This document shows positions 1,277 to 14,322 of a stretch of DNA of 17,243 bases, piece by piece. The notes under the pieces were generated by a model. The model worked only from the letters and a program-made list of their open reading frames with translations, was not told where the DNA came from and did no database searches. Position 1 is the stretch's first letter. Each line of letters begins with the position of its first letter. The position numbers and the translations under genes are program-made. The DNA comes from Escherichia coli (GTDB lineage Bacteria; Pseudomonadota; Gammaproteobacteria; Enterobacterales; Enterobacteriaceae), in assembly GCA_025544715.1 (NCBI GenBank), contig GCA_025544715.1_4109.6, one strand, 5' to 3'.

Positions 1277-1277
1277 A

Positions 1278-1748
1278 ATGAGTTTAGAAAGAGCATTAGA
1301 GATTGCGAAGTTAATTGATTTATGCAGCAAAGAAATTGTAGCAAATTGTCTCAATGGATATCTATTCAAGGAAGGTAAATCATATTGTCGAATGATATAC
1401 GATGACAGTAGTGAATATATCCATATGTATGAAGAAAACTTAGATGATTCTGACATAGTACTCACAGGATGTGATGTTAATTTGGAAGATAATTACATGT
1501 ACTTCTGCCGTGATGCTGATATTTTAATCCAAGATTCATTAATTCAAACAGGTGCACCAGAGGTATATCTTCCGTATTCAGTACTGGATAATAACTGGGG
1601 TAGTGAAGATTACTATTTCCAGCAGAGTACTATATATAATGAAGATATACTTGACAAACTTGTTATTTCTTGGTACTTTCATAACACGGATTATAGTAGC
1701 TTCTACATAGACTTGGATCTACTAAGAGTACTTAAAGAGGATATATGA
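1278..1748 (+). CDS. hypothetical protein, FQxS-motif paralog family, subtype B
   Basis: AGGGG RBS upstream. N-terminus MSLERALEIAKLI; C-terminus NWGSEDYYFQQSTIYNEDILDKLVISWYF. Confidence 0.8.
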   Translation: MSLERALEIAKLIDLCSKEIVANCLNGYLFKEGKSYCRMIYDDSSEYIHMYEENLDDSDIVLTGCDVNLEDNYMYFCRDADILIQDSLIQTGAPEVYLPYSVLDNNWGSEDYYFQQSTIYNEDILDKLVISWYFHNTDYSSFYIDLDLLRVLKEDI

Positions 1749-2188
1749 GTTTAGAAAGAGCACTAGAATTAGCCAACAAAATACATCAGTACCATGATAA
1801 AATAAAAAGTGGGTTCTATGCTGATAAAGTACATGCATATGGGAATGAATATTATCTCACAGGAGTAAAGAGATACTCTAATGATATTTTACTTATGGGT
1901 CATGATAAAGACTATACTATACAGTACTCTTCATGTAGTCAATATACTAGTTTTATGGTATATATTCCTGGTACTAAGATTACTTTTGACACATCAAATA
2001 CACCTGTTGACTTCGGGGTACTTGATGGCCCGTGGGGTACTGAAGAGTATTACTTCCAACAGAGTCTCATTTTTAACCAAGAAATGCTTGATTCCTTGGT
2101 TGTGTTGTGGTACTTTAAGGAATTGAATTTTGAACCATTCTTTCTTGACTGGGGGTCATGTGAGTATTTAATTTCAGGGGATTTGTAA
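1745..2188 (+). CDS. hypothetical protein, FQxS-motif paralog family, subtype B
   Basis: ATGA overlap, AGAGGA RBS. N-terminus MSLERALELANKIHQY; C-terminus PWGTEEYYFQQSLIFNQEMLDSLVVLWYFK. Confidence 0.8.
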   Translation: MSLERALELANKIHQYHDKIKSGFYADKVHAYGNEYYLTGVKRYSNDILLMGHDKDYTIQYSSCSQYTSFMVYIPGTKITFDTSNTPVDFGVLDGPWGTEEYYFQQSLIFNQEMLDSLVVLWYFKELNFEPFFLDWGSCEYLISGDL

Positions 2189-2676
2189 TGTCGTTACAAA
2201 GTGCATTGAAAGAAGCAAAGAAAATTCATGAGTTCATGATTATGGTACAGGAAGGTTCAGTACCTGGTGTGTATAAAACATCTGATACGGAATTCTTCGT
2301 TAAGGATAGAGATGATTATGACGAGTCCGAGATATGTGCAGAAACATTAGTACTGCACACTGATACTGGTGACAGTGATAACTGTGAATATCATATGTAC
2401 AATCAGTACATTAGTTATTGCCGTAATGAAGATATTACCATCTACAACACAGATAGTGATGCTGATGACACTATTATTCCTTATTCAGTACTGGAAGGTC
2501 CGTGGGATAGTGAAGAGTTTTACTTCCAGAATAGTACTATCTACAATGAAGAAGAACTGGATGTTATTGTGATTATGTGGTATTTCAAAAGTATTGACTC
2601 CAGTAGTTTCTATTTTGATTATGAATATGTAGAGAATACAGTAGGAGAAGGTAATGTCATTACAAAGTGCTCTTGA
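2188..2676 (+). CDS. hypothetical protein, FQxS-motif paralog family, subtype B
   Basis: TAATG overlap, AGGGGA RBS. N-terminus MSLQSALKEAKKIHEF; C-terminus PWDSEEFYFQNSTIYNEEELDVIVIMWYFK; very close to 782..1276. Confidence 0.8.
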   Translation: MSLQSALKEAKKIHEFMIMVQEGSVPGVYKTSDTEFFVKDRDDYDESEICAETLVLHTDTGDSDNCEYHMYNQYISYCRNEDITIYNTDSDADDTIIPYSVLEGPWDSEEFYFQNSTIYNEEELDVIVIMWYFKSIDSSSFYFDYEYVENTVGEGNVITKCS

Positions 2677-3106
2677 AAAAGCAAAAGAACTACATGGATA
2701 CTTTGAAGATATAAAGGCCGGAAAGTTTAAAGAAGTGTACAAAGCCGAGAACGGTAACTACTACAAAGATGAAATGTATAATAACTCCGTTGGTGTAAGG
2801 GTTATTCTTGGGTTGAATTCCAATAGCCCAGTGTCGTATTCGGAATACAATAGAGATGCAGAATTCATTAGTTATGTTGAAAATGGTAGCATTCGTTTTA
2901 TTAATAGACAAAAACCATTAATTTTGAATTATGAAGTACTGGATGGTCCGTGGGATAGTAAAGAGTATTACTTCCAAAACAGTACTGTATACGATGATGA
3001 AGTACTTGAAGCATTAGTTATTATGTGGTACTTAAAGAGTGTTAACTGTCCTCGATTTTATTTGGATTTCGAAGAACTTCGTAAAGATCCAGAAGGTATA
3101 GAATGA
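2654..3106 (+). CDS. hypothetical protein, FQxS-motif paralog family, subtype B
   Basis: AGGAGAAGG RBS before ATG 2654; overlaps the upstream ORF by 23 nt. N-terminus MSLQSALEKAKELHGY; C-terminus PWDSKEYYFQNSTVYDDEVLEALVIMWYLK. Confidence 0.8.
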   Translation: MSLQSALEKAKELHGYFEDIKAGKFKEVYKAENGNYYKDEMYNNSVGVRVILGLNSNSPVSYSEYNRDAEFISYVENGSIRFINRQKPLILNYEVLDGPWDSKEYYFQNSTVYDDEVLEALVIMWYLKSVNCPRFYLDFEELRKDPEGIE

Positions 3107-3417
3107 AAAACTTATTCAGTGTTCAGTACGTTCCTGGTGAAATTGGTTTATTGTATCTATTTGACCATGATAATTCATTATTACTAGTAGTGAAGAAATG
3201 CCAAGCTAGTTCGTTTGTTGAATACATTCACGATAGTGAATACATTCCTGATTTCCTAGAGTGTGATTATCACGATGAACATGAATCATTTATTTTTCAG
3301 GAATCACTCGTATGGGATAAGTCGATTAACTTCTTTACGTTAATTGAATTACAAAAGCAGGTGAAGTATCATTGGGATTACTTAATTACACAGGATTACA
3401 TTGAGATTGAAACATAA
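3103..3417 (+). CDS. hypothetical protein, FQxS-motif paralog family, short subtype A
   Basis: ATGA overlap, GAAGG RBS. Motif ESFIFQESLVWD. Confidence 0.7.
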   Translation: MKNLFSVQYVPGEIGLLYLFDHDNSLLLVVKKCQASSFVEYIHDSEYIPDFLECDYHDEHESFIFQESLVWDKSINFFTLIELQKQVKYHWDYLITQDYIEIET

Positions 3418-3725
3418 TGACTAAAAATGAATTTGATTCACTTTGTACGGTTTATAATTCATTGACAGAAATACCTGACTTTATTAATTACATTTCAGCG
3501 TTAAATCATATTATGCATAGTTTTGAACAATCGTTTGAAAAGAAATATTCTGGTAGAAAAGTTCTATGTCATATGTCAATGTACTTAGGAGATGGTGAGC
3601 CTTTCACTACCAGTACTACATGTGAAATAAAAAAATATAATATATTATTGGGCACAATAGAATTCACAGTATCCAATGGTGGTAGTTATATGTACTTTAG
3701 AGATGGTGTGGTTGAATTATTATGA
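3417..3725 (+). CDS. hypothetical small protein (no family motif)
   Basis: TAATG overlap with the upstream ORF; 102 aa; lacks the FQxS core. Coding status rests on coupling and the absence of alternatives. Confidence 0.55.
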   Translation: MTKNEFDSLCTVYNSLTEIPDFINYISALNHIMHSFEQSFEKKYSGRKVLCHMSMYLGDGEPFTTSTTCEIKKYNILLGTIEFTVSNGGSYMYFRDGVVELL

Positions 3726-4168
3726 GTTACGAAAGTGATCTTAAACATGCTGAAGAATTAGTTAATATAGTAAAGTTCTTTCAAAATAATGTAAAGTACT
3801 TAGACGACAAAGGGGCATATATTAGTACTATAAGTGTTGGTACAGATATTCTAGGATTAGGTAATGAATATAAGTACGAGTCCCATGATTATGATTTGGA
3901 ATTCAAGTACTTCGAATGGAATTCTGGAACTTTCTATTCAATCGATGAAAGTGGGGAATATTTAGAATTCTCCGAAGAAGAAGTACTATTCTTAAATTCA
4001 GAATATGCTTACTTCCAGTACAGTACTATATACCCAAGTAGTGCATTAAGAGCTTTAGTAGTTTTTAATGCATTTCTGAAAGAGAACTTTAATAATTCTA
4101 TATTCATTGATTTAAATTATGTATATGAACTAAATCAGGTGATATATATGGAGTCCAGAAAAAAATGA
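3722..4168 (+). CDS. hypothetical protein, FQxS-motif paralog family, subtype B variant
   Basis: ATGA overlap. N-terminus MSYESDLKHAEELVNIVKFF; motif EYAYFQYSTIY; paralog of the next ORF. Confidence 0.75.
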   Translation: MSYESDLKHAEELVNIVKFFQNNVKYLDDKGAYISTISVGTDILGLGNEYKYESHDYDLEFKYFEWNSGTFYSIDESGEYLEFSEEEVLFLNSEYAYFQYSTIYPSSALRALVVFNAFLKENFNNSIFIDLNYVYELNQVIYMESRKK

Positions 4169-4614
4169 GTTACGAAAGTGCAATCAAGAAAGCAAATGAT
4201 ATTCTAAAAGTTGTTAAGTTCTTCAAAGAAAATCCTGAATATCTAGATGATGAAAACCATGATCACGATGAGAGATTGAGACGAAAAATTGTCGCTTTAT
4301 TTGACACTAATGCAGATAATTATAGTCTAATTGAGTTAGCATACGATTATATTTCATTGAACCGAAACGGACATTTAGTTAATATAGAAAGACATGAGAG
4401 TGAAGAATCTTTTAAAATTTCAGACATTTTATCCCTGAGTACTGAAGAAGGGTACTTCCAGGGTAGTACTGTTTATGAACAAGGAACGCTTGACAATCTA
4501 TGCACATTCAGTGTAATATATCAGAAATCAGTACTGGATGTATTTTATCTTGACACTGCTGAACTGGATACACTAATCAATTTTGTTACTACTGAAGAGG
4601 CCACATTTGAGTGA
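4165..4614 (+). CDS. hypothetical protein, FQxS-motif paralog family, subtype B variant
   Basis: ATGA overlap. N-terminus MSYESAIKKANDILKVVKFF; motif EEGYFQGSTVY. Confidence 0.75.
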   Translation: MSYESAIKKANDILKVVKFFKENPEYLDDENHDHDERLRRKIVALFDTNADNYSLIELAYDYISLNRNGHLVNIERHESEESFKISDILSLSTEEGYFQGSTVYEQGTLDNLCTFSVIYQKSVLDVFYLDTAELDTLINFVTTEEATFE

Positions 4615-5147
4615 TGAAAGTTAACATCAATGACTTTGATGCATTACAAGATTTATCAAAAAAGATTCGAACTATCGTACCAGTACTCAAAAAATGTAGT
4701 ACTGGTTTAATCGATCCTAGTACTGTTGTTAATGAGAAGTACAATTTTCATCGTGCATTACAGGGTACAGGTGCATTTCAGAAGTGTGATGTACGTGAGA
4801 AACACGTAATTGATACATCATTGTTTTCTATTGGTGCACCTGTGTCGAATAATTCTATTTTCCTGGATAACGCAGGAAATATTCAACAATTAACATTTAA
4901 GAAAAGGAAAAAGAACAATAACATTGGTGTGTACGCGATGAAGTGGGGTCAACCTGATTTGAAGCGTGAAATTCACATCCCTAAGTACAATTACAATTCA
5001 TTCGACGAACAGTGTTTTCAACTATCGTGTACTGACCCTGACTATGCAATCATTCAGTTCTATATGGAATTGCAGATAGCATTTAACAGTAATTTATATA
5101 TTAACTTGTTGGCAATGAACATCGATGAAGTATTCAAAAACATTTAA
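4614..5147 (+). CDS. hypothetical protein, divergent FQxS-motif paralog
   Basis: ORF track 4611..5147 begins at GTG; ATG at 4614 overlaps the upstream TGA (TGATG). Motif DEQCFQLSCTD. Confidence 0.6.
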   Translation: MKVNINDFDALQDLSKKIRTIVPVLKKCSTGLIDPSTVVNEKYNFHRALQGTGAFQKCDVREKHVIDTSLFSIGAPVSNNSIFLDNAGNIQQLTFKKRKKNNNIGVYAMKWGQPDLKREIHIPKYNYNSFDEQCFQLSCTDPDYAIIQFYMELQIAFNSNLYINLLAMNIDEVFKNI

Positions 5148-5343
5148 TCGAATTGAATACATGAGAACTGTGAGTGCAGTGTGGGACATATGGTTCACTA
5201 CTAAACCAAAAATGGATTACCATGACTTTAAGCTCTTGTTCTTCGTTGGCTCTAACAAACAGGATGTTGCAATGAAGGGTTACATTGAGCACTTACAGGA
5301 ACTAATCCAGAAGAGAATATATGAAAATAATAGACCAAAATGA
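5125..5343 (+). CDS. hypothetical small protein (no family motif)
   Basis: ORF track 5125..5343; alternative in-frame ATG at 5161, just after the upstream stop. No clear RBS. Start uncertain. Confidence 0.45.
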   Translation: MKYSKTFNRIEYMRTVSAVWDIWFTTKPKMDYHDFKLLFFVGSNKQDVAMKGYIEHLQELIQKRIYENNRPK

Positions 5344-5512
5344 CATTGCTAAACTATTCAATATATATTCTACTAGAATGATGCAAACAGACTCATATAG
5401 TACTGAATTCAAAGAGTTGAAAGTACTGATGTACTTGGGAACCCAATATCAGGAACAAGTTATTTTGGAATATATTAATTCGTTGAAGAAGGATATCCGT
5501 TATGTACGATGA
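5321..5512 (+). CDS. hypothetical small protein (no family motif)
   Basis: 63-aa ORF overlapping the upstream stop region and overlapped by the downstream ATG at 5502; fits the coupled chain. No motif. Confidence 0.45.
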   Translation: MKIIDQNDIAKLFNIYSTRMMQTDSYSTEFKELKVLMYLGTQYQEQVILEYINSLKKDIRYVR

Positions 5513-6062
5513 TTTAGATCTTGCGTTTGAACGTATGGTAATTTTAATGCAATGTGCAGAAATGCATGAAACAATCCGTCGCACCAAAGGGATTGAATAT
5601 ACAAGTAAACTATTCTCATACGAAAGTCGTCGAGGGATGGATCATTTTTACTGCACTGATTGTTCAAAGTTTTCAGTACTGAAATATTATCATCCTACTG
5701 TTTCCAATAATAGTTTAATATCCACATATGACGGTGATCTGTTTAGTGTAATGTATGACACATTACATCCATCAATTTCAATCTATAAAGATTGCGATAG
5801 TAGTTTATCGTATATAATTGAAGATTACTTATCCCCTAACACTGAAGAGAATATTTTTCAGAACAGTGTATTGCATGATGAATTAAGTATAAAATGCATC
5901 TATATGTTCAATAAGTTAAAAGAATACGCTGATAATAATTACTTAATTGATGAGTTAGCAGTATTGTCTGTTTCCGTTTTTAATACAAATGATATTGATA
6001 TGAAATACTATAATGAGATTTGTAAAGTACATCATATGTATAAGGAACTATTATGCCAATAA
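5502..6062 (+). CDS. hypothetical protein, FQxS-motif paralog family, long subtype C
   Basis: Overlaps the upstream stop. Motif EENIFQNSVLHD followed by a hydrophobic segment. Confidence 0.7.
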   Translation: MYDDLDLAFERMVILMQCAEMHETIRRTKGIEYTSKLFSYESRRGMDHFYCTDCSKFSVLKYYHPTVSNNSLISTYDGDLFSVMYDTLHPSISIYKDCDSSLSYIIEDYLSPNTEENIFQNSVLHDELSIKCIYMFNKLKEYADNNYLIDELAVLSVSVFNTNDIDMKYYNEICKVHHMYKELLCQ

Positions 6063-6655
6063 ATGCAAATAAATGTTGTAGTGCAGATGTGCATTTGTTT
6101 TTTAAGAAATTGGCAAATGATATTATATATATGCAGGAAATGATTTATCACAAACGAGCGGATTTAGAAAAAGCATTAGTACAGTTCTCATTTATGCTTG
6201 ATGGTGATATATTTCTAGAGAGTGATGCATTGCGATTAGTATTAGACAAAAATTCTAAAAGATTTTTATTTCATATAGATAATAAATTATGTTCCTCCGT
6301 ATGTCGTACTTTTTATAATCGTGATTCGGACTTATATCAATTCCTTTATTCTAAAGGTGCAGTAGAAGCATCATATGGTGATGGTTATGCCCTAGGAAAG
6401 AGTATTCCATATATGAAATCATTTAAAATAGAACACATCAGTACTGATGAAGATGCAATGTTCACAAATGATATAACTATGGGACGTGAAGATGCAATGC
6501 GATATATTACAAATTCTATGCATACATTCTTTCAACGAACAGAATTTGATAATGTATATATATCAAATGTAAATATTTTCAATGACCTGTGTCAGTACTT
6601 GAGAAGTGTTTGTGACTTCGATGAAAGTTATTGTAAGCTATACACTGAGGTATAA
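6053..6655 (+). CDS. hypothetical protein, possibly a degenerate family member
   Basis: ATG 6053 overlaps the upstream stop at 6060-6062. 200 aa; only a weak motif remnant (EDAMFTND). Confidence 0.6.
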   Translation: MPINANKCCSADVHLFFKKLANDIIYMQEMIYHKRADLEKALVQFSFMLDGDIFLESDALRLVLDKNSKRFLFHIDNKLCSSVCRTFYNRDSDLYQFLYSKGAVEASYGDGYALGKSIPYMKSFKIEHISTDEDAMFTNDITMGREDAMRYITNSMHTFFQRTEFDNVYISNVNIFNDLCQYLRSVCDFDESYCKLYTEV

Positions 6656-6660
6656 AACAA

Positions 6661-7023
6661 ATGAACACATTAAGTATTACATACTATACAACTAAAAAAT
6701 TAGTTACTTGTTTAATATCTTTGAAGACAAACCATGATGATATGTTTGATATGGCTGCATATGAATTAGAATTATCAGAAGATGGCTTCAAGAGCTATGA
6801 AGTATATAGCTATGTCCGTGAAGATGTAATTGACACTACACTAATGCAAGAGGATGAGTTATTCCAAGAAAGTTTAGTATGGGATAATAAGTACGATTGT
6901 AACTTTGATTTCTTATGTTTAATCCAGAAAGAAATGAAAAGAATCTTTGATAATTATCCAATCAAACGTTTCAGTACTGCACCTGAGCAATATAAAAGGA
7001 TTATATTCACCTATGAAGATTGA
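6661..7023 (+). CDS. hypothetical protein, FQxS-motif paralog family, short subtype A
   Basis: GAGG upstream. Motif DELFQESLVWD .. IQKEMKRI. Confidence 0.7.
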   Translation: MNTLSITYYTTKKLVTCLISLKTNHDDMFDMAAYELELSEDGFKSYEVYSYVREDVIDTTLMQEDELFQESLVWDNKYDCNFDFLCLIQKEMKRIFDNYPIKRFSTAPEQYKRIIFTYED

Positions 7024-7390
7024 ATTTGAAGTTATTACATATAGTATAGGTAATGGTATCCGTTGCTATGTACAAGCAAGGCATATGGTTCCTGATGATA
7101 AACTGTCACCCAAAAGCTTCTGTATCACACAAGATCTCTTAGATATCAACGGAGAGTACAAGTACATATATTATCTTACTAAGGGTTATTGTAGTACACG
7201 TGGTTTTAATATTGTAGCTGTTTCTAGAGATGAAATTGATGATTTAACTGAGTACGGGGAAGAAGAGATGTTCCAGTACAGTACTGTTTTTAATGAACTG
7301 GATGTGTTTCTGTTACGAAAAATACAACACATTATGCAAGAATGTTTGCATCATAAGAGAGGTATTGTATGCGACGTGAATCTGAATTAG
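7013..7390 (+). CDS. hypothetical protein, FQxS-motif paralog family, subtype B-like
   Basis: ORF track 6947..7390; I prefer the internal ATG at 7013 (AAAGGA 12 nt upstream, 11-nt overlap with the upstream ORF instead of 77). Motif EEEMFQYSTVFN. Confidence 0.65.
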   Translation: MKIEFEVITYSIGNGIRCYVQARHMVPDDKLSPKSFCITQDLLDINGEYKYIYYLTKGYCSTRGFNIVAVSRDEIDDLTEYGEEEMFQYSTVFNELDVFLLRKIQHIMQECLHHKRGIVCDVNLN

Positions 7391-7710
7391 TTAAAGTAAT
7401 GTACGCTACTCATATTAAACTACTACTTGTTAAATTTGATTATAATAAAAAACATAATGATTTCTATACTTTAATTCGTGATGAAAATACATTCTCCTTG
7501 CGATGCAACAATATACCCTTGAAGATAAATGATTTTACTTCACTTGACGAGGGGGAATTATTTCAAGAATCATTAGTTTTTAATAGTAATATAAAAATTG
7601 ATATAGAAGTTATTAAAAAATACCAGATGCTATTGAACAAAATTATGAATTGTTACCCATGTGAAATAGGTGGTCATATGCAGTTCAAATCAAAAATGTA
7701 TGAATTATGA
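7369..7710 (+). CDS. hypothetical protein, FQxS-motif paralog family, short subtype A
   Basis: AGAGAGG RBS before ATG 7369. Motif GELFQESLVFN. Confidence 0.7.
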   Translation: MRRESELVKVMYATHIKLLLVKFDYNKKHNDFYTLIRDENTFSLRCNNIPLKINDFTSLDEGELFQESLVFNSNIKIDIEVIKKYQMLLNKIMNCYPCEIGGHMQFKSKMYEL

Positions 7711-7717
7711 GGTTTAT

Positions 7718-8254
7718 ATGTTAGATGAGAAAATGAACAATGGAACTCAATATAATCATCTTAAGTTGGATACATTCGAATCAGCTATCAGTACAGCACA
7801 AGATATTATCGATATTATCAAGTTCATTAAAGAAGATAAGTTCAAATGTTTGAAAATACTAAATCGTTCAATGTACCGTGATAAAAATATTCATGTATCA
7901 GTACGTAGACCGAAAGATCAAGAAAGTGGGAGAGATTTCTATAACAACAGTGAGCAGTTCGAATGTGAATATGATCCAGAATTTAGAGGTGGTTTCATGT
8001 GTTACAGTATGAAGGATACCTCACACATTGAGATACGTTCATTGAACGGTGGCATACGTACATTAGAGTTTATTGATATAGTTTTAAATCAGGAATACTA
8101 CTTTCAACTATCATTATTGTTTCCTGCATACGATTTAGGAGTTCTATTCATGTATAAGTACTTTCATGAGCACTGGAATGAAGACTTCTATCTGGACTTA
8201 GAAGATTACCACTTAGTTTGGAAAGAAATGGTAAAACTTCGCAACCCATCTTGA
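7718..8254 (+). CDS. hypothetical protein, FQxS-motif paralog family, subtype B-like
   Basis: ORF track 7670..8254; the in-frame ATG at 7718 lies just after the upstream stop, with TGAGG upstream. Motif QEYYFQLSLLF .. FYLDLEDY. Confidence 0.7.
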   Translation: MLDEKMNNGTQYNHLKLDTFESAISTAQDIIDIIKFIKEDKFKCLKILNRSMYRDKNIHVSVRRPKDQESGRDFYNNSEQFECEYDPEFRGGFMCYSMKDTSHIEIRSLNGGIRTLEFIDIVLNQEYYFQLSLLFPAYDLGVLFMYKYFHEHWNEDFYLDLEDYHLVWKEMVKLRNPS

Positions 8255-8280
8255 CACCCTCCGATTCTTTGTGATATAAT
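8251..8280 (+). promoter_or_regulatory. sigma70-type promoter with extended -10 (TTGACA-N18-TGaTATAAT)
   Basis: -35 TTGACA at 8251-8256 (overlapping the upstream stop codon), extended -10 TGaTATAAT at 8272-8280, sitting in the only sizeable gap before ATG 8314. Confidence 0.6.
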
Positions 8281-8313
8281 CTCTTTATATTAATTGTAAA
8301 GGGTTATATCACA

Positions 8314-8790
8314 ATGTCCAAAGACCTATCATTTAGCAATGCACAAAAAATAGCAAAAGACATTATCAGGGTTTATAAATTTCTTACAAATGTTACTGAA
8401 GATTTTTCCGTAGGCAAACATACAGTCAAAAAACGAAATGGATACCTTTCCTTTATGGATGGGTTACTCTATAGTTCAGATGAATCAACTTGTAGTATTA
8501 GAGTGCTTGATGAAGTACCAAGTGGTGATTTTATTTCATACCATTTCCCAAGTTCAGATAATTTCAAATACTACAATCATCATCTTATAAATGAAGGATT
8601 TGATACGGCTGAAATTAACACTGAAGAAGAGTTTTTTCAGTACAGTACTGTGTACCCAGAGAGGATTGTTTTCAGTTCAGTGATTTACACTACTCTTAAA
8701 AATGAACTAAATTCCGATAGTGATCATTTCTACTTGGACCTGAACAATCTCGATTGTATTATTGAGTACCTGGAGAAAAATGGTTTATGA
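8314..8790 (+). CDS. hypothetical protein, FQxS-motif paralog family, subtype B-like
   Basis: AAAGGG RBS. N-terminus MSKDLSFSNAQKIAKDIIRVYKFL; motif EEEFFQYSTVY .. HFYLDLNNL. Confidence 0.75.
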   Translation: MSKDLSFSNAQKIAKDIIRVYKFLTNVTEDFSVGKHTVKKRNGYLSFMDGLLYSSDESTCSIRVLDEVPSGDFISYHFPSSDNFKYYNHHLINEGFDTAEINTEEEFFQYSTVYPERIVFSSVIYTTLKNELNSDSDHFYLDLNNLDCIIEYLEKNGL

Positions 8791-9281
8791 TTACTACAGA
8801 ATATGATTACGATGGTGTTTTAGAATTTGCAGAAAATATCTATCGCATTGCAAAGGAGTTCAGAAGTCCTGCCCCATTTGGTGGTATGTTCGAATACGAT
8901 GAGTTTAGTTCATCCAAAGGAAGACTTGCGTTTACTAATGTAAGAGGTAATCAAATCTATGCCGAGTACTTTGATGACAATGACTTTCATTACAAAGCCG
9001 GATACATTTCATATTGCCCTGGGTCTGATTTGAAGATTAATATTGACAATTATAGAGAAGCAGTATTTGTTAAGTATGATGATTTAGTGCTCATGTCAGA
9101 GGAAATGTACTTTCAGGGTTCTTGTATTCATGATGTAAAAGTACTTAATGCTATGTTATTTTATGGTGCACTACTTCATCATTACAAATACAAACAACGA
9201 TTCTTTTTAGATTTAGTAGTATACGATAAATGCGTGGATTATTTGAATGCAAAATACAACAACAATTCAGTACATGACTGA
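8787..9281 (+). CDS. hypothetical protein, FQxS-motif paralog family, subtype B-like
   Basis: ATGA overlap. Motif SEEMYFQGSCIHD .. FFLDLVVY. Confidence 0.75.
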   Translation: MITTEYDYDGVLEFAENIYRIAKEFRSPAPFGGMFEYDEFSSSKGRLAFTNVRGNQIYAEYFDDNDFHYKAGYISYCPGSDLKINIDNYREAVFVKYDDLVLMSEEMYFQGSCIHDVKVLNAMLFYGALLHHYKYKQRFFLDLVVYDKCVDYLNAKYNNNSVHD

Positions 9282-9609
9282 TGGTACTGAATACTTTGTT
9301 TCAAGATATGTAATCAACCACAACCATTATGTAACCTATATTCCAGAATACAATCAATTTTATATCCAGATTTATCAATATAATGGAAAGATAAATGATA
9401 TATATTCAGAAATAAAAATCCCTGATTATAGTACTTTATCAGAAGAGGAATTGTTTCAGCAGAGCACTATCAGTACTGAAGATGTGTACGAAATAATGGA
9501 ATACCAAAAGGTACTTAAACATTTTCATGAAGAAAATGATATACAAATAGATATTGTTAAACCGTGGTGTTACAATACATATGAGGTAAATTATGTTAGA
9601 AATGATTAA
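9247..9609 (+). CDS. hypothetical protein, FQxS-motif paralog family, short subtype A
   Basis: ORF track start 9247; alternative in-frame ATG at 9274, nearer the upstream stop at 9279-9281. Motif EEELFQQSTIS. Confidence 0.6.
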   Translation: MQNTTTIQYMTDGTEYFVSRYVINHNHYVTYIPEYNQFYIQIYQYNGKINDIYSEIKIPDYSTLSEEELFQQSTISTEDVYEIMEYQKVLKHFHEENDIQIDIVKPWCYNTYEVNYVRND

Positions 9610-10006
9610 AATTATGCAACGTTGTGTTGTTGACCAACACGGGATATATGGATATCGTTTAAGTGCTCCTATTGACAAAAATAAAACAACCTATGTAAGC
9701 TATAATGCTGTACAAGGATTTGATATATTCATTAGTACTAATTATCAAATCAAACAAGCTAAAGATGTGTCTATAATGACCCCTGATGAGTTATTTCAGT
9801 ACAGCTTAGTCTTTCCTACATGTATCGATTTACAACGTCTAGGAGCGATACAGAAGGTTTTACGTGAACATAAAGTACAACCCAATAAAGTCACACACAT
9901 TCCAGAAACAATCTTCAAAACCATAGAAGTAGAAACTCCTGATTATATGTTAAGTGATGATGAGTACTACGAGAAACACTTCCCTGGTAAAGTTTGGAGA
10001 GACTAA
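9593..10006 (+). CDS. hypothetical protein, FQxS-motif paralog family, short subtype A
   Basis: GAGGTAAA RBS 4-5 nt before ATG 9593. Motif PDELFQYSLVF. Confidence 0.7.
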   Translation: MLEMIKIMQRCVVDQHGIYGYRLSAPIDKNKTTYVSYNAVQGFDIFISTNYQIKQAKDVSIMTPDELFQYSLVFPTCIDLQRLGAIQKVLREHKVQPNKVTHIPETIFKTIEVETPDYMLSDDEYYEKHFPGKVWRD

Positions 10007-10497
10007 TGAACCGAAAGTACAGAGAAACTATGAAGTTCGCCAAGGAGTGTTTAGAAGTGTTTGAGTTTATCAATGCTCATAAAGATTTACTCCATAGATA
10101 CATTGCAATCAGTGAGACAGATGACCATAGGTACATATGTTCTCGAATTCAAGATAAGATATATAAGATTGTGTTCTCGGAAACATACACAGATACATCT
10201 AATTCACTATATGATTTTGCACGTACTGATTACGTTTCATACAAATCTTGGTCTGATAGTATTAAAATTGTGCACAAGCAAAATACATTTTATTCTTTTC
10301 TTACGGACATTTCCGAAGAAAGTTACTTTCAAAACAGTTTAATTTATACAGAAAAAGAACTCAAAATGTTATACATTATGTCGTACTTTAAAAAGTACTG
10401 CAAATTTAATACATTATCTTTTGAGATTTCTGCAATGAAAGTATTCATTAAAAATGTAAAAGAATTAAAGAGGGTTTTTAATGTACATAGAAAATGA
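10006..10497 (+). CDS. hypothetical protein, FQxS-motif paralog family, subtype B-like
   Basis: ORF track 9994..10497 begins at TTG; ATG at 10006 overlaps the upstream TAA (TAATG), with TGGAGAGA upstream. Motif EESYFQNSLIY .. MSYFKK. Confidence 0.7.
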   Translation: MNRKYRETMKFAKECLEVFEFINAHKDLLHRYIAISETDDHRYICSRIQDKIYKIVFSETYTDTSNSLYDFARTDYVSYKSWSDSIKIVHKQNTFYSFLTDISEESYFQNSLIYTEKELKMLYIMSYFKKYCKFNTLSFEISAMKVFIKNVKELKRVFNVHRK

Positions 10498-11023
10498 GAA
10501 TGTAAAATGCATTACTGACATTTGTATAAAATTAATGAAAATTTTCATTAACCCAAAATACAAAAAACGTTCATTACATCATAATATTGATGAGCATTGT
10601 ACCATTAATATACTAGGTAGTATTCTTGATGTAAAATATGATGGTAAAATGTTATTCGGCATAAGAGAAGAGAAAATAGATGATGCATTCTTTTCCTGTA
10701 AAGATAAATTTGAACCTTCTGATTATAAAGTAATTATTCGTGATGATAGCATCTACATTAGTAGTGATTATTCAAATTACTTCGATAAAATATACACTGA
10801 AAACGTTGACTACCATTATGAAATGATAGATTTACCAGTAACAGACATTGATATGGAGAGAATCAAATTTTCATTATCAGATAATGAGTACTTAGGTATA
10901 CAAACATATTATTCACTACAAGGAAAGATTCCACCTGCTATGTATATAAGGATTGAGATTGGTAATGTATTCAATGATAAGGTTATATCAATTGCTGATA
11001 AAATATTGAGGGTTGAATTATGA
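10481..11023 (+). CDS. hypothetical protein, possibly a degenerate family member
   Basis: GAGGG RBS 6 nt before ATG 10481. 180 aa; core motif not clearly recognisable. Confidence 0.6.
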   Translation: MYIENENVKCITDICIKLMKIFINPKYKKRSLHHNIDEHCTINILGSILDVKYDGKMLFGIREEKIDDAFFSCKDKFEPSDYKVIIRDDSIYISSDYSNYFDKIYTENVDYHYEMIDLPVTDIDMERIKFSLSDNEYLGIQTYYSLQGKIPPAMYIRIEIGNVFNDKVISIADKILRVEL

Positions 11024-11583
11024 ATATCAATGATTACCAATTTCATAGGCTTGAATTTCGTCATTGTGTTGCATTTGCAAAAACATTGATGTGCATCATT
11101 GACACTCTTTCATCCAAACAATTTCGTAAGGATAATGATTTATTTCTGAAAAAAGGTCGTGTAACATCAACCGATATCGGTATTGAACTATTTGTTGATA
11201 TCAGTGTTGATACCGGAGACAGTACAAGGGTTGGTTGTATAGGTCATATTGGTACACATTGCTTCACATGGAATCCAAATACAAGTCAAGTGCGAATTGA
11301 TTATAGAAATTCACGTTGGGTTGATCTTAGTACTGAATCAGATTTAGAATCAGCTATGTTCCAGCTAAGTTTAATTCACAATCCTAATGAACTTCTTTAC
11401 ATTATTACTTTCAGTTATCTGTTACAAAACTACGATAATCCATCAGGGTTTTTCATAGAATCGGATATAGAAGAAATTATGGAAGAGTTTCCTAGTTTAA
11501 AGGATATTCTGGTAGAAAAAGATTTCTATGAAGACTTCAGAGATTTATACGACATGCACTTGGAGTTATTTAAGAATGGATAA
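11020..11583 (+). CDS. hypothetical protein, FQxS-motif paralog family, long subtype C
   Basis: ATGA overlap, GAGGG RBS. Motif ESAMFQLSLIHN followed by a hydrophobic segment. Confidence 0.7.
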   Translation: MNINDYQFHRLEFRHCVAFAKTLMCIIDTLSSKQFRKDNDLFLKKGRVTSTDIGIELFVDISVDTGDSTRVGCIGHIGTHCFTWNPNTSQVRIDYRNSRWVDLSTESDLESAMFQLSLIHNPNELLYIITFSYLLQNYDNPSGFFIESDIEEIMEEFPSLKDILVEKDFYEDFRDLYDMHLELFKNG

Positions 11584-12094
11584 AGATGATATTCTAATTA
11601 GACTAATTAATAGTTTAATAAAGTTCTCAAATAATGATGTCGATACATACAAAGTAGGGGATATTGAATTTAAATCATTTGGTATGTACGGTGAGGATAA
11701 AACATATTATGCGTCAATGAAATTTCAAGATTTTCACGAGATGTTAATATCGTTATCATATGAAGATGTTGATCCAAGATGGAGTTCCAGTATTTCACTA
11801 TCGAGAATGGTAATTCGTAGTAAGCATCGTTATATTTCGTCAAAGAATACTCCTAACTTGATTAATATTGTGTTGAATGAAAATACAAATCCCCTATCTA
11901 AACATGATATCGTACCGTTAACCGATGAAGTTCTTTTTCAATTGAGTACCATTTGTGATGAAGATGTGATATCATGTATGAAAATTTATGAGAAGGTTGG
12001 GAGTGATATTCCCATGAACTATTACCTAACTATAGATGGAACGTACCTTCGAGATGAGGTTCTAGCGTACATTGACAGTGTTTTACCAAAATAA
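11576..12094 (+). CDS. hypothetical protein, FQxS-motif paralog family, long subtype C
   Basis: ORF track 11528..12094; the in-frame ATG at 11576 overlaps the upstream stop (ATGGATAA), with GGAG upstream. Motif DEVLFQLSTICD. Followed directly by a terminator. Confidence 0.65.
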   Translation: MDKDDILIRLINSLIKFSNNDVDTYKVGDIEFKSFGMYGEDKTYYASMKFQDFHEMLISLSYEDVDPRWSSSISLSRMVIRSKHRYISSKNTPNLINIVLNENTNPLSKHDIVPLTDEVLFQLSTICDEDVISCMKIYEKVGSDIPMNYYLTIDGTYLRDEVLAYIDSVLPK

Positions 12095-12120
12095 AGACCC
12101 GTATGGGTCTTTTTGTGTTT
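12093..12120 (+). terminator. intrinsic (rho-independent) terminator
   Basis: Perfect 8-bp stem AAAGACCC / GGGTCTTT with loop GTAT, followed by a T-rich tract (TTTTTGTGTTT), immediately after stop codon 12092-12094. Confidence 0.7.
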
Positions 12121-12125
12121 ATGGC

Positions 12126-12154
12126 TTTACAAGAGCATTCAGGTGTGTTATACT
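12126..12154 (+). promoter_or_regulatory. sigma70-type promoter with extended -10 (TTTACA-N17-TGtTATACT)
   Basis: -35 TTTACA at 12126-12131, 17-nt spacer, TG at 12146-12147, -10 TATACT at 12149-12154; lies between the terminator and the GGAGG RBS of the next ORF. Confidence 0.55.
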
Positions 12155-12181
12155 TGATTTTAAATAGAGTTGGAGGAATCT

Positions 12182-12748
12182 ATGAGTACTGAATTAATTA
12201 AAGAAGTCACATTACTTCTGAAGCATTGTTTTAAGTTCATTCCTGATACTGGTTCCCGCCAGTACATTAAAGTTAATGAGAAATATAACATCAATATCCT
12301 TGTATCTGAAACTGCGAGCAGTTATGCTAACATTGAGTTGGATTCTGAAGAAAAATATACAGTATTACAAATCATAGCAGATGTACAACGTAAACAAGAT
12401 TATCGTTCTTCATTTTACAACGATCATCTATGTGTTTCCTCAAACTTCAGTGAGAATAAAATTGTGTATAAAAATTTATACACACATGAAGTGATTGATA
12501 CATATAATTATAAAATTACATCTGATGAATACAATGTGCTAATGTTCAACGCAAACCTTTTATATGATGCCAGTACTGTACGCTGTTTAGAGTTAGCATA
12601 TAAAATTCCAAAGATCATGGAAAGAAAAGATTTGATTCACTTTAAAACTATTTTAAAATACAGTACAAAAGAATTAGAGGATTTAGTACAGGCTCTTAAG
12701 AATTTCATTAATGAACATGTACCTGTTAAATTCGAGGATGCACAATGA
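12182..12748 (+). CDS. hypothetical protein, possibly a degenerate family member
   Basis: ORF track 12170 begins at TTG; ATG at 12182 is preceded by GGAGG (12172-12176). Only a weak motif remnant (NVLMFNANLLYD). Confidence 0.65.
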   Translation: MSTELIKEVTLLLKHCFKFIPDTGSRQYIKVNEKYNINILVSETASSYANIELDSEEKYTVLQIIADVQRKQDYRSSFYNDHLCVSSNFSENKIVYKNLYTHEVIDTYNYKITSDEYNVLMFNANLLYDASTVRCLELAYKIPKIMERKDLIHFKTILKYSTKELEDLVQALKNFINEHVPVKFEDAQ

Positions 12749-13329
12749 ACCATATCAGAACTAAAATTTTGAGACTCATGCATGACATTGCAGAACTTTC
12801 AGAGATTCATGACATTACGGAAATTGTTGAATTTGATAATTATCGACTGAAAATTGAAAACAAATCCAAACATCGTTTTGGTTCAGTTCAGTTGGATGTA
12901 TATAAAACTTATGAATTTTCTAAAAAAATTAAAAGTTCATGGGATACGATTACTATGTACATTCGCACATCCAGAAATCGTGAACGTATTGGTTCTATTT
13001 CTTATAATATGGTATTTGCGAATGCATTACATGAAAAAATGAATAAAATTGTAGAATCTAATTTCAGTGAAGATGATGGTTTTATTGGGTTGGATGTTCC
13101 ACCAGAATTAGATCAAAGTGAAGATATTCGAGATGCATTCATTTTCCAGAAATCATTGTTGGACAATTACAAAGAATTCGAGTACTTAATGCTTTGTTAC
13201 GATACTGCAAAAATTCTTGATTGTGGTGAACTAGTTATGTACAATGATTTTATCAATTGCAAGACTGATGTTCTGAATACACTACTTCAAAATATAGAAT
13301 CTGTTAAGGAAAAATATGAACGCTTATAG
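12745..13329 (+). CDS. hypothetical protein, FQxS-motif paralog family, long subtype C
   Basis: ATGA overlap, GAGGA RBS. Motif DAFIFQKSLLDN. Confidence 0.7.
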   Translation: MNHIRTKILRLMHDIAELSEIHDITEIVEFDNYRLKIENKSKHRFGSVQLDVYKTYEFSKKIKSSWDTITMYIRTSRNRERIGSISYNMVFANALHEKMNKIVESNFSEDDGFIGLDVPPELDQSEDIRDAFIFQKSLLDNYKEFEYLMLCYDTAKILDCGELVMYNDFINCKTDVLNTLLQNIESVKEKYERL

Positions 13330-13897
13330 TTATATGACAGAACGCCATCAATTATTATATGATATCAGTAAAAAAATGCTATCAATTGTTGGTAGTGCGA
13401 AAGAAATTGAAAAACAATATCTCATCCGTGATGTAGCAATTTCATCTAAATGTTGGTCAAATGAATATTACGACCACGGTATTCTGACTATTTCAGGGGC
13501 CAGAAATATTTGTATTGTAAAAAATAAAAGTAAAAGTAATAAAGAGTGTGAGATTAGAACCGATATACAAATTAAGGATGATGGAAGTTTTTCACATCAC
13601 CCATTCCATATTAGTACTGTTGGTGTTTTATATAATATTAAAGTACTATTCGGTGATGAAGAGTATGTGTTAAAAGCTATCAATCCAGAATCAAGTACAG
13701 TTGAAGAAGAACTGTTCCAGATGAGCACTGTTATACCTGAAGAGGTTCTTAGTACTGTTATTTTTTGTAGTTTAATTTATCATGAATACAAAAAGAACCA
13801 GTTCGATTTCCACATGTTAGGAACGTACATCTTCAATAATTTGAATGTAGATCGTTTAAATGCATTAAATTCAGCAATGGATAAGGTGCTACAATGA
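13316..13897 (+). CDS. hypothetical protein, FQxS-motif paralog family, long subtype C
   Basis: AAGGAAA RBS. Motif EEELFQMSTVI followed by a hydrophobic segment. Confidence 0.7.
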   Translation: MNAYSYMTERHQLLYDISKKMLSIVGSAKEIEKQYLIRDVAISSKCWSNEYYDHGILTISGARNICIVKNKSKSNKECEIRTDIQIKDDGSFSHHPFHISTVGVLYNIKVLFGDEEYVLKAINPESSTVEEELFQMSTVIPEEVLSTVIFCSLIYHEYKKNQFDFHMLGTYIFNNLNVDRLNALNSAMDKVLQ

Positions 13898-14322
13898 CAA
13901 GAGATGATTGTTTGTACATATGGGATATAATTGAAACTACACTTTCAAATCCAGAAAATTATAAAACAAAAAAAAGACAACGACACAAAATATGGATAGA
14001 TTTGTTCGTTGAGGGCATACACGCAGTGACTATTTGGGATTCACCGAGGGCATCAGCATCTACTCTATTGGACAATGAATGCATTGATTGCATTAATTCC
14101 ACTTTTCATCTCTACGGTACTACATTTTTCGGTACATTTCTGGATATTGAAAGTAAAGATGATATTGATTCACTTGCGTTACAATACCAAGTACTGTATA
14201 ATACTAAATTAATTTACGATTTAGTACTAGCTTCTTATGTGTATAAATTAATGATGAAATATAATCATATTTCTGTTTCAGTTTATACTAAGGATATTCT
14301 TTCATTAAGAGACAAAACATGA
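13894..14322 (+). CDS. hypothetical protein, possibly a degenerate family member
   Basis: ATGA overlap. Degenerate motif SLALQYQVLYN. Confidence 0.6.
   Translation: MTRDDCLYIWDIIETTLSNPENYKTKKRQRHKIWIDLFVEGIHAVTIWDSPRASASTLLDNECIDCINSTFHLYGTTFFGTFLDIESKDDIDSLALQYQVLYNTKLIYDLVLASYVYKLMMKYNHISVSVYTKDILSLRDKT

Follow-up and report, generated by a model that had tools for sequence, protein, structure and literature searches.

Candidate sigma70-type promoters, intrinsic terminators and a promoter-bearing RNA hairpin in a small-gene array of an Asteriusvirus

The early promoters of large virulent coliphages (T4, CBB and PA5oct) combine near-consensus hexamers with a TG, occur in dozens to more than 100 copies per genome, lie ahead of short genes of unknown function and all sit on the coding strand. 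In phage CBB, RpoD-like promoters cluster among mostly short hypothetical ORFs, which the authors suspect to be early genes. In PA5oct, TTGAC/TATAATA promoters are found around transcription start sites, and rifampicin abolishes phage production.

A different arrangement is the PeSL cassette of T4-like phages: a stem-loop lies just upstream of a sigma70-like promoter, followed by a Shine-Dalgarno sequence (SD) and a start codon (Arbiol et al. 2010, PMC2839356; Comeau et al. 2014, PMC4122927). Promoters and hairpins are also combined at the T4 genes e, soc, 49 and I-TevI and at Aeh1 mobE, where the SD or the start codon is held in a helix that forms solely when transcription has begun at a promoter farther upstream. 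The 5' strand of this helix is encoded by the DNA that holds the proximal promoter; transcripts of the proximal promoter lack that strand and hence are translated. The T4 genes regulated in this way have been described as all late and carried on long polycistronic transcripts. Their hairpin-internal promoter is a late one (TATAAATA), and it is a middle or late one for some homing-endonuclease genes.

We analyzed a 17,243-nt stretch of DNA (the window). The window belongs to Asteriusvirus, the 121Q/PBECO4/G17 group of E. coli jumbo phages of about 350 kb, and is 98.9% identical to the Asteriusvirus phages G17, SHEFM2K and Sharanji. Its promoters resemble the early promoters of the large coliphages in their hexamers, their TG and their placement. 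The Asteriusvirus sites, by comparison, are known as predictions, and the promoter that we call P1 has an unusual 18-nt spacer in all clades.

Promoter P1 and the hairpin around it

The array around P1 and a second promoter, P2, consists of small paralogous genes that run in one direction. Three of its intergenic gaps are sizeable (59 nt at 8255-8313, 87 nt at 12095-12181 and 61 nt at 15394-15454) and the remaining ones in the window all measure 9 nt or less. An earlier note on this DNA had counted two sizeable gaps only; the third one houses a terminator, T3. In other respects the observation held up, and P1, P2 and the terminator T2 lie at the coordinates that it gave. The following elements lie in and around the first gap:

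8251-8256, + strand: P1 -35 hexamer TTGACA; all 18 Asteriusvirus genomes examined have its TTGAC
8269-8314, + strand: P1 hairpin (palindrome) of 46 nt, enclosing the P1 -10 and the ribosome-binding site
8272-8280, + strand: P1 extended -10, TGaTATAAT (TG at 8272-8273, TATAAT at 8275-8280), 18 nt from the -35
8287, + strand: predicted P1 transcription start, an A, placed by the usual -10 to +1 spacing, 7 nt past the -10 hexamer
8314-8790, + strand: gene that opens the P1 unit (158 aa); it belongs to the F-Q-x-S paralogue family, which has no assigned function

P1 matches the sigma70 -35 consensus at 6/6 positions, has a consensus -10 with the TG, and is placed in sense orientation in an intergenic gap. 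The earlier reading of P1 as two consensus hexamers 18 nt apart, with a TG, was correct in sequence and position; its "N18" applies from hexamer to hexamer, whereas TTGACA to TG spans just 15 nt. TGNTATAAT occurs nowhere else in the window. The upstream gene ends within the -35 hexamer, with its TGA stop codon at 8252-8254. The predicted P1 leader is 27 nt long, with AAAGGG (8298-8303) as the SD and ATG 8314 as the start codon.

Conservation is focused on the promoter elements. In the three Asteriusvirus clades, the hexamers, the TG and the spacer lengths of both P1 and P2 are kept, whereas the spacers, the T2 loop and the flanking genes change. At P1, no genome examined departs from TGTGATATAAT, and the spacer keeps its 18 nt, JNE01 and Turkey5 included. 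In the comparison with clade 2, the P1 region (8251-8313) shows 95% identity and its flanks 82% and 58%. In JNE01, the P1 module retains 81% DNA identity, while the syntenic proteins that flank the modules are only 27-50% identical, in the same gene order.

In RNA, the TG and the -10 hexamer of P1 would belong to the 5' arm of a hairpin of 20 bp, whose 3' arm masks the SD and the first base of the start codon. The predicted structure consists of an outer stem (8269-8281/8302-8314), a bulged U8282, an inner stem (8283-8289/8295-8301) and a loop (8290-8294), in which the SD AAAGGG and the A of ATG 8314 are paired. The predicted fold of 8262-8325 has an energy of -22.1 kcal/mol (z = -6.4), and the hairpin is kept in all 18 genomes examined at -16 to -22 kcal/mol.

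We calculated the predicted cost of opening the ribosome-binding site of gene 8314. It was 18.0 kcal/mol on read-through RNA versus 2.3 kcal/mol on RNA started at P1; for the other 36 genes of the window the median was 6.5 and the maximum 9.7 kcal/mol. In the related genome ECO103, the opening cost of this gene ranked 9th of 597; among the 68 genes that have a strong promoter at most 80 nt upstream, it came first. We rejected the idea that genes close to a promoter generally have closed ribosome-binding sites in ECO103: the median opening costs were 4.8 against 5.9 kcal/mol, showing no excess.

This geometry is the same as that of T4 gene e: the -10 serves as the 5' arm, and transcription is predicted to start within the hairpin (+1 at 8287). 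RNA from upstream would carry both arms, and its ribosome-binding site would therefore be closed. RNA started at P1 would begin within the hairpin, without the outer 5' arm, and its ribosome-binding site would therefore be open. In this folding model, gene 8314 is probably translated mainly from P1-started RNA. The T4 features of SD and start-codon pairing on upstream RNA and of a promoter in the 5' strand thus have their counterparts here, the first as a prediction and the second through the position assigned to +1. Unlike in T4, the internal promoter is not of a later temporal class: P1 is of the consensus sigma70 extended -10 type, and gene 8314 belongs to a large set of paralogues with no assigned function. 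The TATAAATA motif is absent from the window.

Is the hairpin a by-product of the promoter sequence? The control pattern TTGAC-N13-TTGTGATATAAT matched more than 120 loci in IMG/VR, and among 120 such loci only the 121Q contig carried the downstream complement. Thus, the P1 hairpin does not simply come with the promoter sequence. In JNE01, the SD and the inner-stem sequences differ and the pairing is maintained. Over the 18 predicted hairpin pairs, we found one compensatory change, three wobble changes and single broken pairs in four sequences. Covariation support is thin, and the hairpin signal is mostly plain sequence conservation; the 5' arm is constrained regardless, because it is the promoter. 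In Rfam, nothing reached the gathering threshold, and the matches at P1 were solely sub-threshold microRNA-like hairpins.

A second similar case lies elsewhere in the genome, at the gene at ECO103 308886-309128. We tentatively propose, at somewhat less than an even chance, that the consensus host sigma70 promoter P1 gates translation together with its hairpin, as a switch, that gene 8314 is silent on the long read-through RNA of the array and translated solely from its own short transcript, and that, with the second case, this is a recurrent device of RaK2-like jumbo phages.

Known RNase III substrates are near the size of a 20-bp stem. The hairpin, with its one bulge, could serve in RNA processing or stabilisation instead of gating translation, either as an RNase III site or by protecting the 3' end of read-through RNA, a reading that we find unlikely. 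It would suit an upstream unit that is not closed by a terminator, and at the promoter at ECO103 62358 the -10 does lie in a hairpin that leaves the ribosome-binding site free. At P1, however, the SD lies within the 3' arm in all three clades, and this arm reaches up to or into the start codon, even where the SD differs (JNE01). Such coverage is predicted by occlusion of the ribosome-binding site and is not required of a pure processing site. Processing and translational gating are compatible, and a role in the one would not exclude the other.

Terminators T2 and T3, promoter P2 and the cassette question

The second and third gaps, together with the last part of the window, contain the following elements:

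12093-12122, + strand: T2 intrinsic terminator; stem AAAGACCC/GGGTCTTT (12093-12112) with loop GTAT, then TTTTTGTGTTT; U-tract TTTTTGTGTT
12126-12154, + strand: P2 promoter; -35 TTTACA (12126-12131), 17-nt spacer, TG (12146-12147), -10 TATACT (12149-12154)
15398-15425, + strand: T3 intrinsic terminator; 9-bp stem with loop GTTGA (stem-loop 15398-15420), then TTTTT
15408-15436, + strand: P3, a doubtful candidate promoter; TTGACT, 17 nt, TGaTACATT (9/12 plus TG), with its -35 inside the T3 loop
17052-17079, + strand: internal candidate promoter, TTGACA-16-TAAAAT (11/12), inside the ORF 16595-17179 and about 110 nt before the next gene

T2 and T3 both combine a stable G+C-containing stem with a U-tract at the end of a gene. 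The T2 stem has 8 bp, four of them GC pairs, and is followed by the RNA tail UUUUUGUGUUU; it starts on the final base of the stop codon of the upstream gene (12092-12094). T2 has a predicted fold of -11.4 kcal/mol (z = -3.4), and its stem (AAGACCC/GGGTCTT) and T-run are invariant in three clades, with a variable loop. T3 begins 4 nt after a stop codon and has a predicted fold of -12.8 kcal/mol (z = -3.8). At the positions homologous to T2 and T3, the G17 record lists ARNold terminators (-9.1 and -11.7 kcal/mol), and both are thus already in public annotation. A hairpin terminator directly before P2 had been claimed from the letters alone, and the 8-bp stem, the T-run, the fold energy and the ARNold annotation confirm it.

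P2 has the sequence and position first ascribed to it. It matches the -35 consensus at 5/6 positions, has the TG and a 17-nt spacer, and lies in sense orientation between genes, 14 nt past the T2 stem and 28 nt ahead of a gene with a strong SD. Transcription from P2 is predicted to start near 12161-12162, giving a leader of about 20 nt with the SD GGAGG (12172-12176) and ATG 12182. TTG 12170 was rejected as the start codon in favor of this ATG with its GGAGG.

Neither GCTTTACA nor GTGTTATA of P2 varies. JNE01 and three of the four clade 2 genomes have TATAAT as the -10, and the fourth, ph0011, has TATACT like the window. In JNE01, the spacer sequence has diverged and its length is still 17 nt. 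Alignment of JNE01 and Turkey5 to the window in the P2 region is confined to 12087-12152, and the T2-P2 module is 87% identical to JNE01 at the DNA level. Taken as a whole, the T2-P2 interval is no better conserved than its flanks (81% versus 92% and 85%). The case for P2 as a promoter is made by position and by conservation of its elements, not by its score.

The 48-nt segment with T3 (15394-15441) is present in the 121Q/G17/UE-S1 clade and missing from the Turkey3/ph0011/TH47/CMSTMSU clade; the third unit boundary is thus no conserved feature. P3 was kept merely as a doubtful candidate, with a chance-level score and a predicted start on the SD at 15443, which would give a leader of 12 nt. 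The hexamers of the internal candidate at 17052-17079 are 100% conserved in clade 2, versus 74% for the flanks, and are present in ECO103.

The layout of T2-P2 is that of a PeSL: an A3G..C..T3-type stem-loop, a sigma70-like promoter, an SD and a start codon, among small ORFs of unknown function. P2 itself, TTTACA-N17-TATACT, is near the PST/T4 PeSL consensus TTTACW-N17-TAYWAT. P1 departs from this layout, as it has no upstream terminator. PeSLs occur in many copies, unlike the modules of the window: a short-word BLAST search of the 352-kb ECO103 genome found no second copy of the P1, T2-P2 or T3 modules, the other matches being at most 16 nt long and the exact ones at most 14 nt. We therefore rejected PeSL membership for all three modules, which are single-copy in the genome. 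In IMG/VR, a query with the downstream protein returned only the 121Q contig, and so did the T2 pattern.

Could T2-P2 nonetheless be primarily a mobile cassette of the PeSL type, conserved partly through use as a recombination linker in the shuffling of small genes? Its PeSL-like layout would fit, as would the 87% identity of the module in JNE01, whose flanking genes can no longer be matched at the DNA level, and the T3 module, which is an indel between clades. However, single-copy modules cannot serve as dispersed repeats within one genome; the surroundings of both P1 and T2-P2 are syntenic even in JNE01, with no sign of shuffling; and about two-thirds of the module positions are functionally constrained, which alone could explain the conservation. 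We consider this role unlikely, and read T2-P2 as a terminator followed by a promoter.

Promoter census, polymerase and transcription units

Counts within the window carry little weight. The total of promoter-like sites was 107 versus 111.8 expected, so there is no enrichment. On the + strand, 0.83 sites with a score of at least 10/12 plus TG were expected and two were seen (P about 0.2), which proves nothing by count. We relied instead on the perfect score of P1, on position, on conservation and on a census of the related 352-kb genome ECO103, in which the intergenic counts rest on our own crude ORF calling.

ECO103 contains 168 strong sigma70-like sites versus about 47 expected: 30 sites of 12/12 (0.85 expected), 78 of 11/12 (28 expected) and 60 of 10/12 plus TG (18.5 expected). 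Although non-coding DNA makes up 8.4% of the genome, 97 of the 168 sites are intergenic, and 154 of the 168 are on the coding strand. Sites that score like P1 (12/12 plus TG) are expected 0.05 times per whole 352-kb genome on both strands, and four were seen. Conservation specific to the elements and enrichment over chance thus both apply to the sigma70 extended -10 class, the score of P2 by itself not being significant. The consensus of the ECO103 promoters is A-rich upstream of the -35, a stretch that the UP-like element reported for CBB resembles. Several -35/-10 sub-classes occur in the genome, such as a recurrent GGGACA-16-TGnTATAAT. The window is promoter-poor relative to other small-gene regions of the genome, where 12/12 promoters recur every 300-500 bp.

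Which polymerase reads these promoters? These phages are described as reliant on the host polymerase, and E. coli RNA polymerase with sigma70 would thus bind the -35, TG and -10 of P1 and P2. The presence of well over 100 host-type promoters in the genome fits such a dependence. Sharanji encodes an RpoD-like sigma factor, which has been described as a hallmark of the group, and host sigma70 is thus not the sole candidate reader of P1 and P2. A sigma70-family factor of the phage itself, of the RpoD-like kind found in "group 2" jumbo phages, might read both promoters on host core enzyme, and the array would then be expressed after a first wave of phage proteins. The presence of this factor in a phage 98.9% identical to the window speaks for such a scheme, as do the CBB sigma factor with regions 2, 3 and 4 and the promoter sub-classes. 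It is nevertheless decidedly unlikely. A perfect E. coli sigma70 consensus with a TG is expected to be recognised by the host holoenzyme without a phage factor, and for P1 that holoenzyme should suffice. We found no report of a virion-carried polymerase for the group, so the unmodified host enzyme must read some promoters; and the "divergent" promoter class of CBB (-35 TGAAACG) would be a more natural target for a phage factor.

The two weakest alternatives concern the promoter sequences themselves. It is very unlikely that the 46-bp P1 palindrome is a DNA operator on whose TTGTGATATAA half-sites a dimeric phage or host protein shuts P1 off: the arms of the palindrome form a perfect inverted repeat of 11 nt that overlaps the -10 hexamer and the predicted start, and several other TG-type promoters of the genome carry TGTGA...TCACA half-sites, yet the TGTGA-TCACA distances vary (roughly 8, 24, 30 and 34 nt by our own count), which does not fit a fixed dimer, the half-site centers at P1 are unusually far apart (about 35 bp), and the inner-stem changes in JNE01 preserve RNA pairing with a different SD. 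It is just as improbable that P2 (and P3) are chance matches and that the genes past T2 are expressed solely by read-through of a leaky terminator: the expectations per window strand (0.83 as above, and 4.3 for at least 9/12 plus TG, the class of P3, of which five were seen) and the predicted P3 start on the SD would allow it, and for P3 a chance match is quite likely, but the P2 hexamers, TG and 17-nt spacing are kept in three clades despite the spacer change, with a consensus -10 in most clade 2 genomes and JNE01, at a site placed directly between a terminator and a gene with a strong SD.

Taken together, these results make it likely, as judged from sequence, that P1 and P2 are functional sigma70 extended -10 promoters, that T2 (in three clades) and T3 (in the window's clade) are functional Rho-independent terminators, and that together they order the transcription of the array. 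Transcription would start near A8287 at P1 and near 12161-12162 at P2. The P1 transcript (about 3.8 kb) and read-through from upstream would both end, at least partly, at T2. P2 would restart transcription 14 nt after the T2 stem, for 3.3 kb up to T3 and for longer in the clade without T3. Our search found no terminator ahead of P1, and upstream transcription should thus read through P1.

The nearest upstream terminator-plus-promoter module lies about 4.5 kb left of the window, so that the upstream stretch would measure about 12.8 kb and overlap the P1 unit. These units (about 3-13 kb) would be long compared with those of other small-gene regions of the same genome. The earlier note had divided the array into units of about 8, 4 and 3 kb; in part this reflects the edge of the window, as the upstream unit starts about 4.5 kb outside it and P1 has no terminator before it. 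The promoter-like character of P1 and P2 and the terminator-like character of T2 stand, with conservation in three clades and the census behind them. Partition of the array by terminators holds at T2, which is conserved in three clades; it does not hold before P1, or at T3 in the clade that lacks it.

By analogy with relatives, the array may be expressed early. In the literature searched, the phAPEC6, fEgEco12 and Sharanji papers included, we found neither mapped transcript ends (5' or 3') nor reporter results or data on the timing of expression for any Asteriusvirus.

Overall, this is ordinary phage gene control, except for the placement of P1 inside an RNA hairpin. The conceptual value of P1, P2, T2 and T3 is modest, and they do not overturn current understanding. 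They do provide a partial transcription map, with two well-supported promoters, two terminators and likely unit boundaries, that covers a portion of the largest unknown-gene block of this phage group, which is now being proposed for therapy. Conservation is far higher in the regulatory modules than in the proteins under their control, which makes the modules useful anchors for comparing fast-evolving arrays. The P1 hairpin suggests that the T4 trick of placing a promoter inside a hairpin is also used with an early-type promoter. If the switch is real, the dosage or timing of one paralogue would be uncoupled from that of its neighbors.

Promoters and terminators of the gene array

The window comes from an Asteriusvirus, a genus of ~350 kb jumbo myophages: Escherichia phages SHEFM2K, G17, and Sharanji matched it with 98.9% identity over 6 kb, and 121Q with 98.5% identity (a G17 coordinate, locus L001, minus one gives the window coordinate). 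All 37 genes of the window (37/37) lie on the + strand, span 63–200 codons each, and mostly overlap or abut. An earlier note had read two promoters (P1 and P2) and a terminator (T2) from the sequence. We found all three in place, together with a second terminator (T3):

P1, + strand: -35 TTGACA 8251–8256, 18-nt spacer, TG 8272–8273, -10 TATAAT 8275–8280
T2, + strand: terminator stem AAAGACCC/GGGTCTTT 12093–12112 with loop GTAT, then TTTTTGTGTTT
P2, + strand: -35 TTTACA 12126–12131, 17-nt spacer, TG 12146–12147, -10 TATACT 12149–12154
T3, + strand: 15398–15420, second terminator, in the third sizeable gap

The 18-nt gap noted at P1 holds as the hexamer-to-hexamer distance but not as the distance to the TG. 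The TGA stop (8252–8254) of the gene upstream of P1 falls within the -35 hexamer. The gene after P2 starts at its annotated ATG 12182, five bases past GGAGG (12172–12176); TTG 12170, from a mechanical ORF list, was rejected as less plausible. Both P1 and P2 are unexceptional promoters of the sigma70 extended -10 class. T2 (-11.4 kcal/mol, z = -3.4) and T3 (-12.8 kcal/mol, z = -3.8) are ordinary intrinsic terminators, and the public GenBank record of G17 already lists both as ARNold terminators.

We compared these elements across three lineages: the window's own 121Q/PBECO4 clade; a second clade (Turkey3, ph0011, TH47, CMSTMSU, WPEC5, and Ecwhy_1), ~75–83% identical to the window here; and JNE01/Turkey5. 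At P1, TTGAC and TGTGATATAAT were invariant and the 18-nt spacing was kept in 18/18 genomes examined. The interval 8251–8313 was 95% identical to the second clade, versus 82% and 58% for the flanking coding sequence. The T2 stem (AAGACCC/GGGTCTT) and T-run and the P2 GCTTTACA and GTGTTATA were invariant across clades, while the T2 loop varied (GTAT, TTAT, GTTAT) and the P2 spacer in JNE01 diverged in sequence with its length unchanged. The P2 -10 is the consensus TATAAT in JNE01 and in three of four second-clade genomes, ph0011 retaining TATACT. The JNE01 array is syntenic with the window and its proteins are only 27–50% identical; by BLASTN, the P1 module is 81% and the T2–P2 module 87% identical. 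Kept elements with changed filler are the pattern expected from purifying selection on promoters and terminators.

Site counts within the window alone do not help to show that P1 and P2 exceed chance: we counted 107 promoter-like sites versus 111.8 expected, and 0.83 sites with at least 10/12 matches to the two hexamers plus the TG are expected on one strand. The census was therefore read from a related genome assembled in this analysis, ECO103 4-12-1 (351,992 bp, 97.7% identical). It carries 30 sites at 12/12 (0.85 expected), 78 at 11/12 (28 expected), and 60 at 10/12 plus TG (18.5 expected); P1 is one of four at 12/12 plus TG, where 0.05 are expected. Strong sites were intergenic in 97/168 cases, while non-coding sequence makes up 8.4% of the genome by our own ORF calls, and 154/168 lay on the coding strand. 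This excess and placement indicate that the real sigma70-like promoters of this phage number well over 100, P1 and P2 probably among them. The consensus of the strong sites includes an A-rich stretch upstream of the -35, a feature similar to the reported UP-like element of phage CBB. Thus the census, the conservation, and the ARNold annotation indicate that the earlier reading of real host-type promoters and terminators was largely right in kind. With 7 strong sites per 20 kb, versus 15–25 at 0–60 kb and 300–320 kb, the window region is promoter-poor relative to other small-gene regions.

Transcription units, polymerase, and timing

The proposed units of 8, 4, and 3 kb did not survive, nor did the claim of only two sizeable gaps: there are three, of 59, 87, and 61 nt. 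P1 has no terminator directly before it, and the stretch upstream of P1 extends beyond the window. RNA from upstream should thus cross P1 as far as T2. The nearest strong upstream module in ECO103 is a terminator with TTGACA-17-TGnTATCAT after it, at about -4535 in window coordinates, which would make the stretch before P1 ~12.8 kb long and overlapping with the P1 unit. P1 to T2 measures 3.8 kb and P2 to T3 3.3 kb.

T3 is not a general boundary. Members of the 121Q/G17/UE-S1 clade have the 48-nt segment that carries it (15394–15441), and the whole second clade (Turkey3, ph0011, TH47, CMSTMSU) cleanly lacks that segment, so the P2 unit would simply continue in those phages: a transcription boundary gained or lost between close relatives. 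A promoter-like site straddling T3 (TTGACT-17-TGaTACATT) was not counted; its score is at chance level and its predicted start falls on the Shine-Dalgarno. One further candidate lies inside ORF 16595–17179, ~110 nt before the next gene:

17052–17079: candidate promoter TTGACA-16-TAAAAT (11/12)

Both hexamers are 100% conserved in the second clade versus 74% for the flanks, and the site may be a fourth promoter serving the next gene. That gene begins at ~17189 and is annotated in ph0011 as a 'putative ADP-ribosyl transferase'; a Pfam search of it found nothing.

Who reads these promoters? Dependence on host polymerase has been described for the RaK2-like 'group 2' jumbo phages. In PA5oct, rifampicin abolishes progeny production and TTGAC/TATAATA promoters surround transcription start sites; in CBB, 11/18 RpoD-like promoters fall where most ORFs are short and hypothetical, a region whose genes the authors suspect to be early. 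The perfect E. coli consensus plus TG of P1 should be readable by unmodified sigma70 holoenzyme, making early, host-driven expression of the array the most economical interpretation. Asteriusviruses encode their own RpoD-like sigma factor, and we found no transcript data for the genus in the literature searched; early timing is thus something we infer.

The T4-type late-promoter motif TATAAATA has 0 copies in the window versus 4.1 expected. This absence is not specific to the window: all of ECO103 holds 14 versus about 65 expected, an about five-fold depletion. For ten of the 14, an ORF starts no more than 60 nt downstream; most of these ten are in the large-gene region (60–150 kb), a distribution that would fit a functional motif selected against elsewhere. 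Another motif, GGGACA-16/17-TGnTATAAT, recurs in ECO103, mostly between genes (8566, 34141, 101854, 101930, 134586, 178561, 197570, 208670, 230507, 245198, 255217). These sites may form a promoter class of their own, recognised with the help of a phage factor; the 'divergent RpoD-like' promoters described in CBB and GAP32 are comparable.

The genes themselves gave no clue to function. Most of the 37 belong to one very divergent paralogue family (57–17179; mutual identity 13–29%) with a nearly invariant F-Q-x-S motif (EEYYFQQST, EEMYFQGS). The family had no significant match in Pfam or in a PDB profile search, and its PHROGs matches are all of unknown function. The AlphaFold model (pLDDT 80) had no PDB fold neighbour and matched only uncharacterised proteins in BFVD, the named ones from RaK2-like and other large enterobacterial phages (121Q, SP27, RaK2, GAP32, fHe-Yen9-03). 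The 'host-takeover' label of the earlier note thus stays tentative.

A hairpin around P1

P1 is embedded in a previously unreported structure:

8269–8314, + strand: P1 hairpin, a near-perfect palindrome

The predicted RNA fold has 20 bp, -22.1 kcal/mol, and z = -6.4. Its 5' arm is the TG and TATAAT of P1; its 3' arm spans the Shine-Dalgarno AAAGGG and the A of the ATG of gene 8314, the first gene after P1. Given the -10 at 8275–8280, P1 transcripts would be expected to start at ~A8287, within the hairpin, and so would lack the outer 5' arm. Opening positions -15 to +5 of gene 8314 has a computed cost of 18.0 kcal/mol in read-through RNA (the other 36 window genes: median 6.5, maximum 9.7) and of 2.3 kcal/mol in RNA from the P1 start. 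The gene ranks 9th of 597 in ECO103, and first among the 68 genes with a strong promoter within 80 nt upstream, a group that shows no general trend to high opening cost (n=68).

The hairpin was found in 18/18 genomes examined (-16 to -22 kcal/mol). In JNE01 the Shine-Dalgarno (GGAG) and the opposing strand have both changed with pairing retained. Across 18 predicted pairs we counted one compensatory change and three changes to or from wobble pairs, and single pairs were broken in four sequences; formal covariation support is thin. The exact extended -10 version TTGAC-N13-TTGTGATATAAT, a 17-base pattern present in at least 120 IMG/VR viral contigs (L017–L136), appears widespread among phages. 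Among the 120 matches listed, the downstream complement is present in the 121Q contig only, which argues against the hairpin arising simply from the promoter sequence.

This arrangement matches the mechanism of T4 genes e, soc, 49, and I-TevI, where the ribosome-binding site is hidden in long transcripts, and RNA from a promoter located within the structure's 5' strand can be translated. The T4 genes so regulated are all described as late, whereas the internal promoter here is consensus sigma70. Alternatively, the structure may serve the unterminated upstream RNA as an RNase III site or as a stabilising hairpin; a DNA operator is a less likely role for the palindrome.

Two other ECO103 loci may resemble P1. 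At 302748 (minus strand), the -10 hexamer pairs with the start-codon region in a fold from just upstream of the -10 to the start codon (-24.1 kcal/mol, z = -4.9). Gene 308886–309128 has a strong promoter 21 nt upstream; opening its RBS costs 14.6 kcal/mol, a value that only one other promoter-proximal gene exceeds. At 200311, 211319, and 29627 (minus strand), a terminator hairpin with U-run begins only a few bases after the -10 of a strong promoter, and the predicted start lies in the 5' arm; upstream RNA would terminate there, and the promoter's own RNA could not form the terminator.

Composite cassettes

The T2–P2 layout is that of the PeSL (promoter-early stem-loop) terminator/promoter cassettes of T4-like phages (PMC2839356, PMC4122927). 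We rejected membership because PeSLs are defined as a repeated family and each module here is single-copy. Elsewhere in ECO103 (L008–L015), very small genes at 302–318 kb and 2.5 kb are preceded by near-identical cassettes, at least six in number and 300–500 bp apart, each with a 12/12 or 11/12 promoter (..GTACTGTATAATAGTTTACATC..) and then a G/C-rich stem-loop (GGGGAGAAnnGTTCTCCCC); as repeated regulatory cassettes, these look PeSL-like.

Taken together, the promoters and terminators of the window are expected biology for this phage group and partly annotated already; only the siting of P1 within a hairpin is mildly novel.
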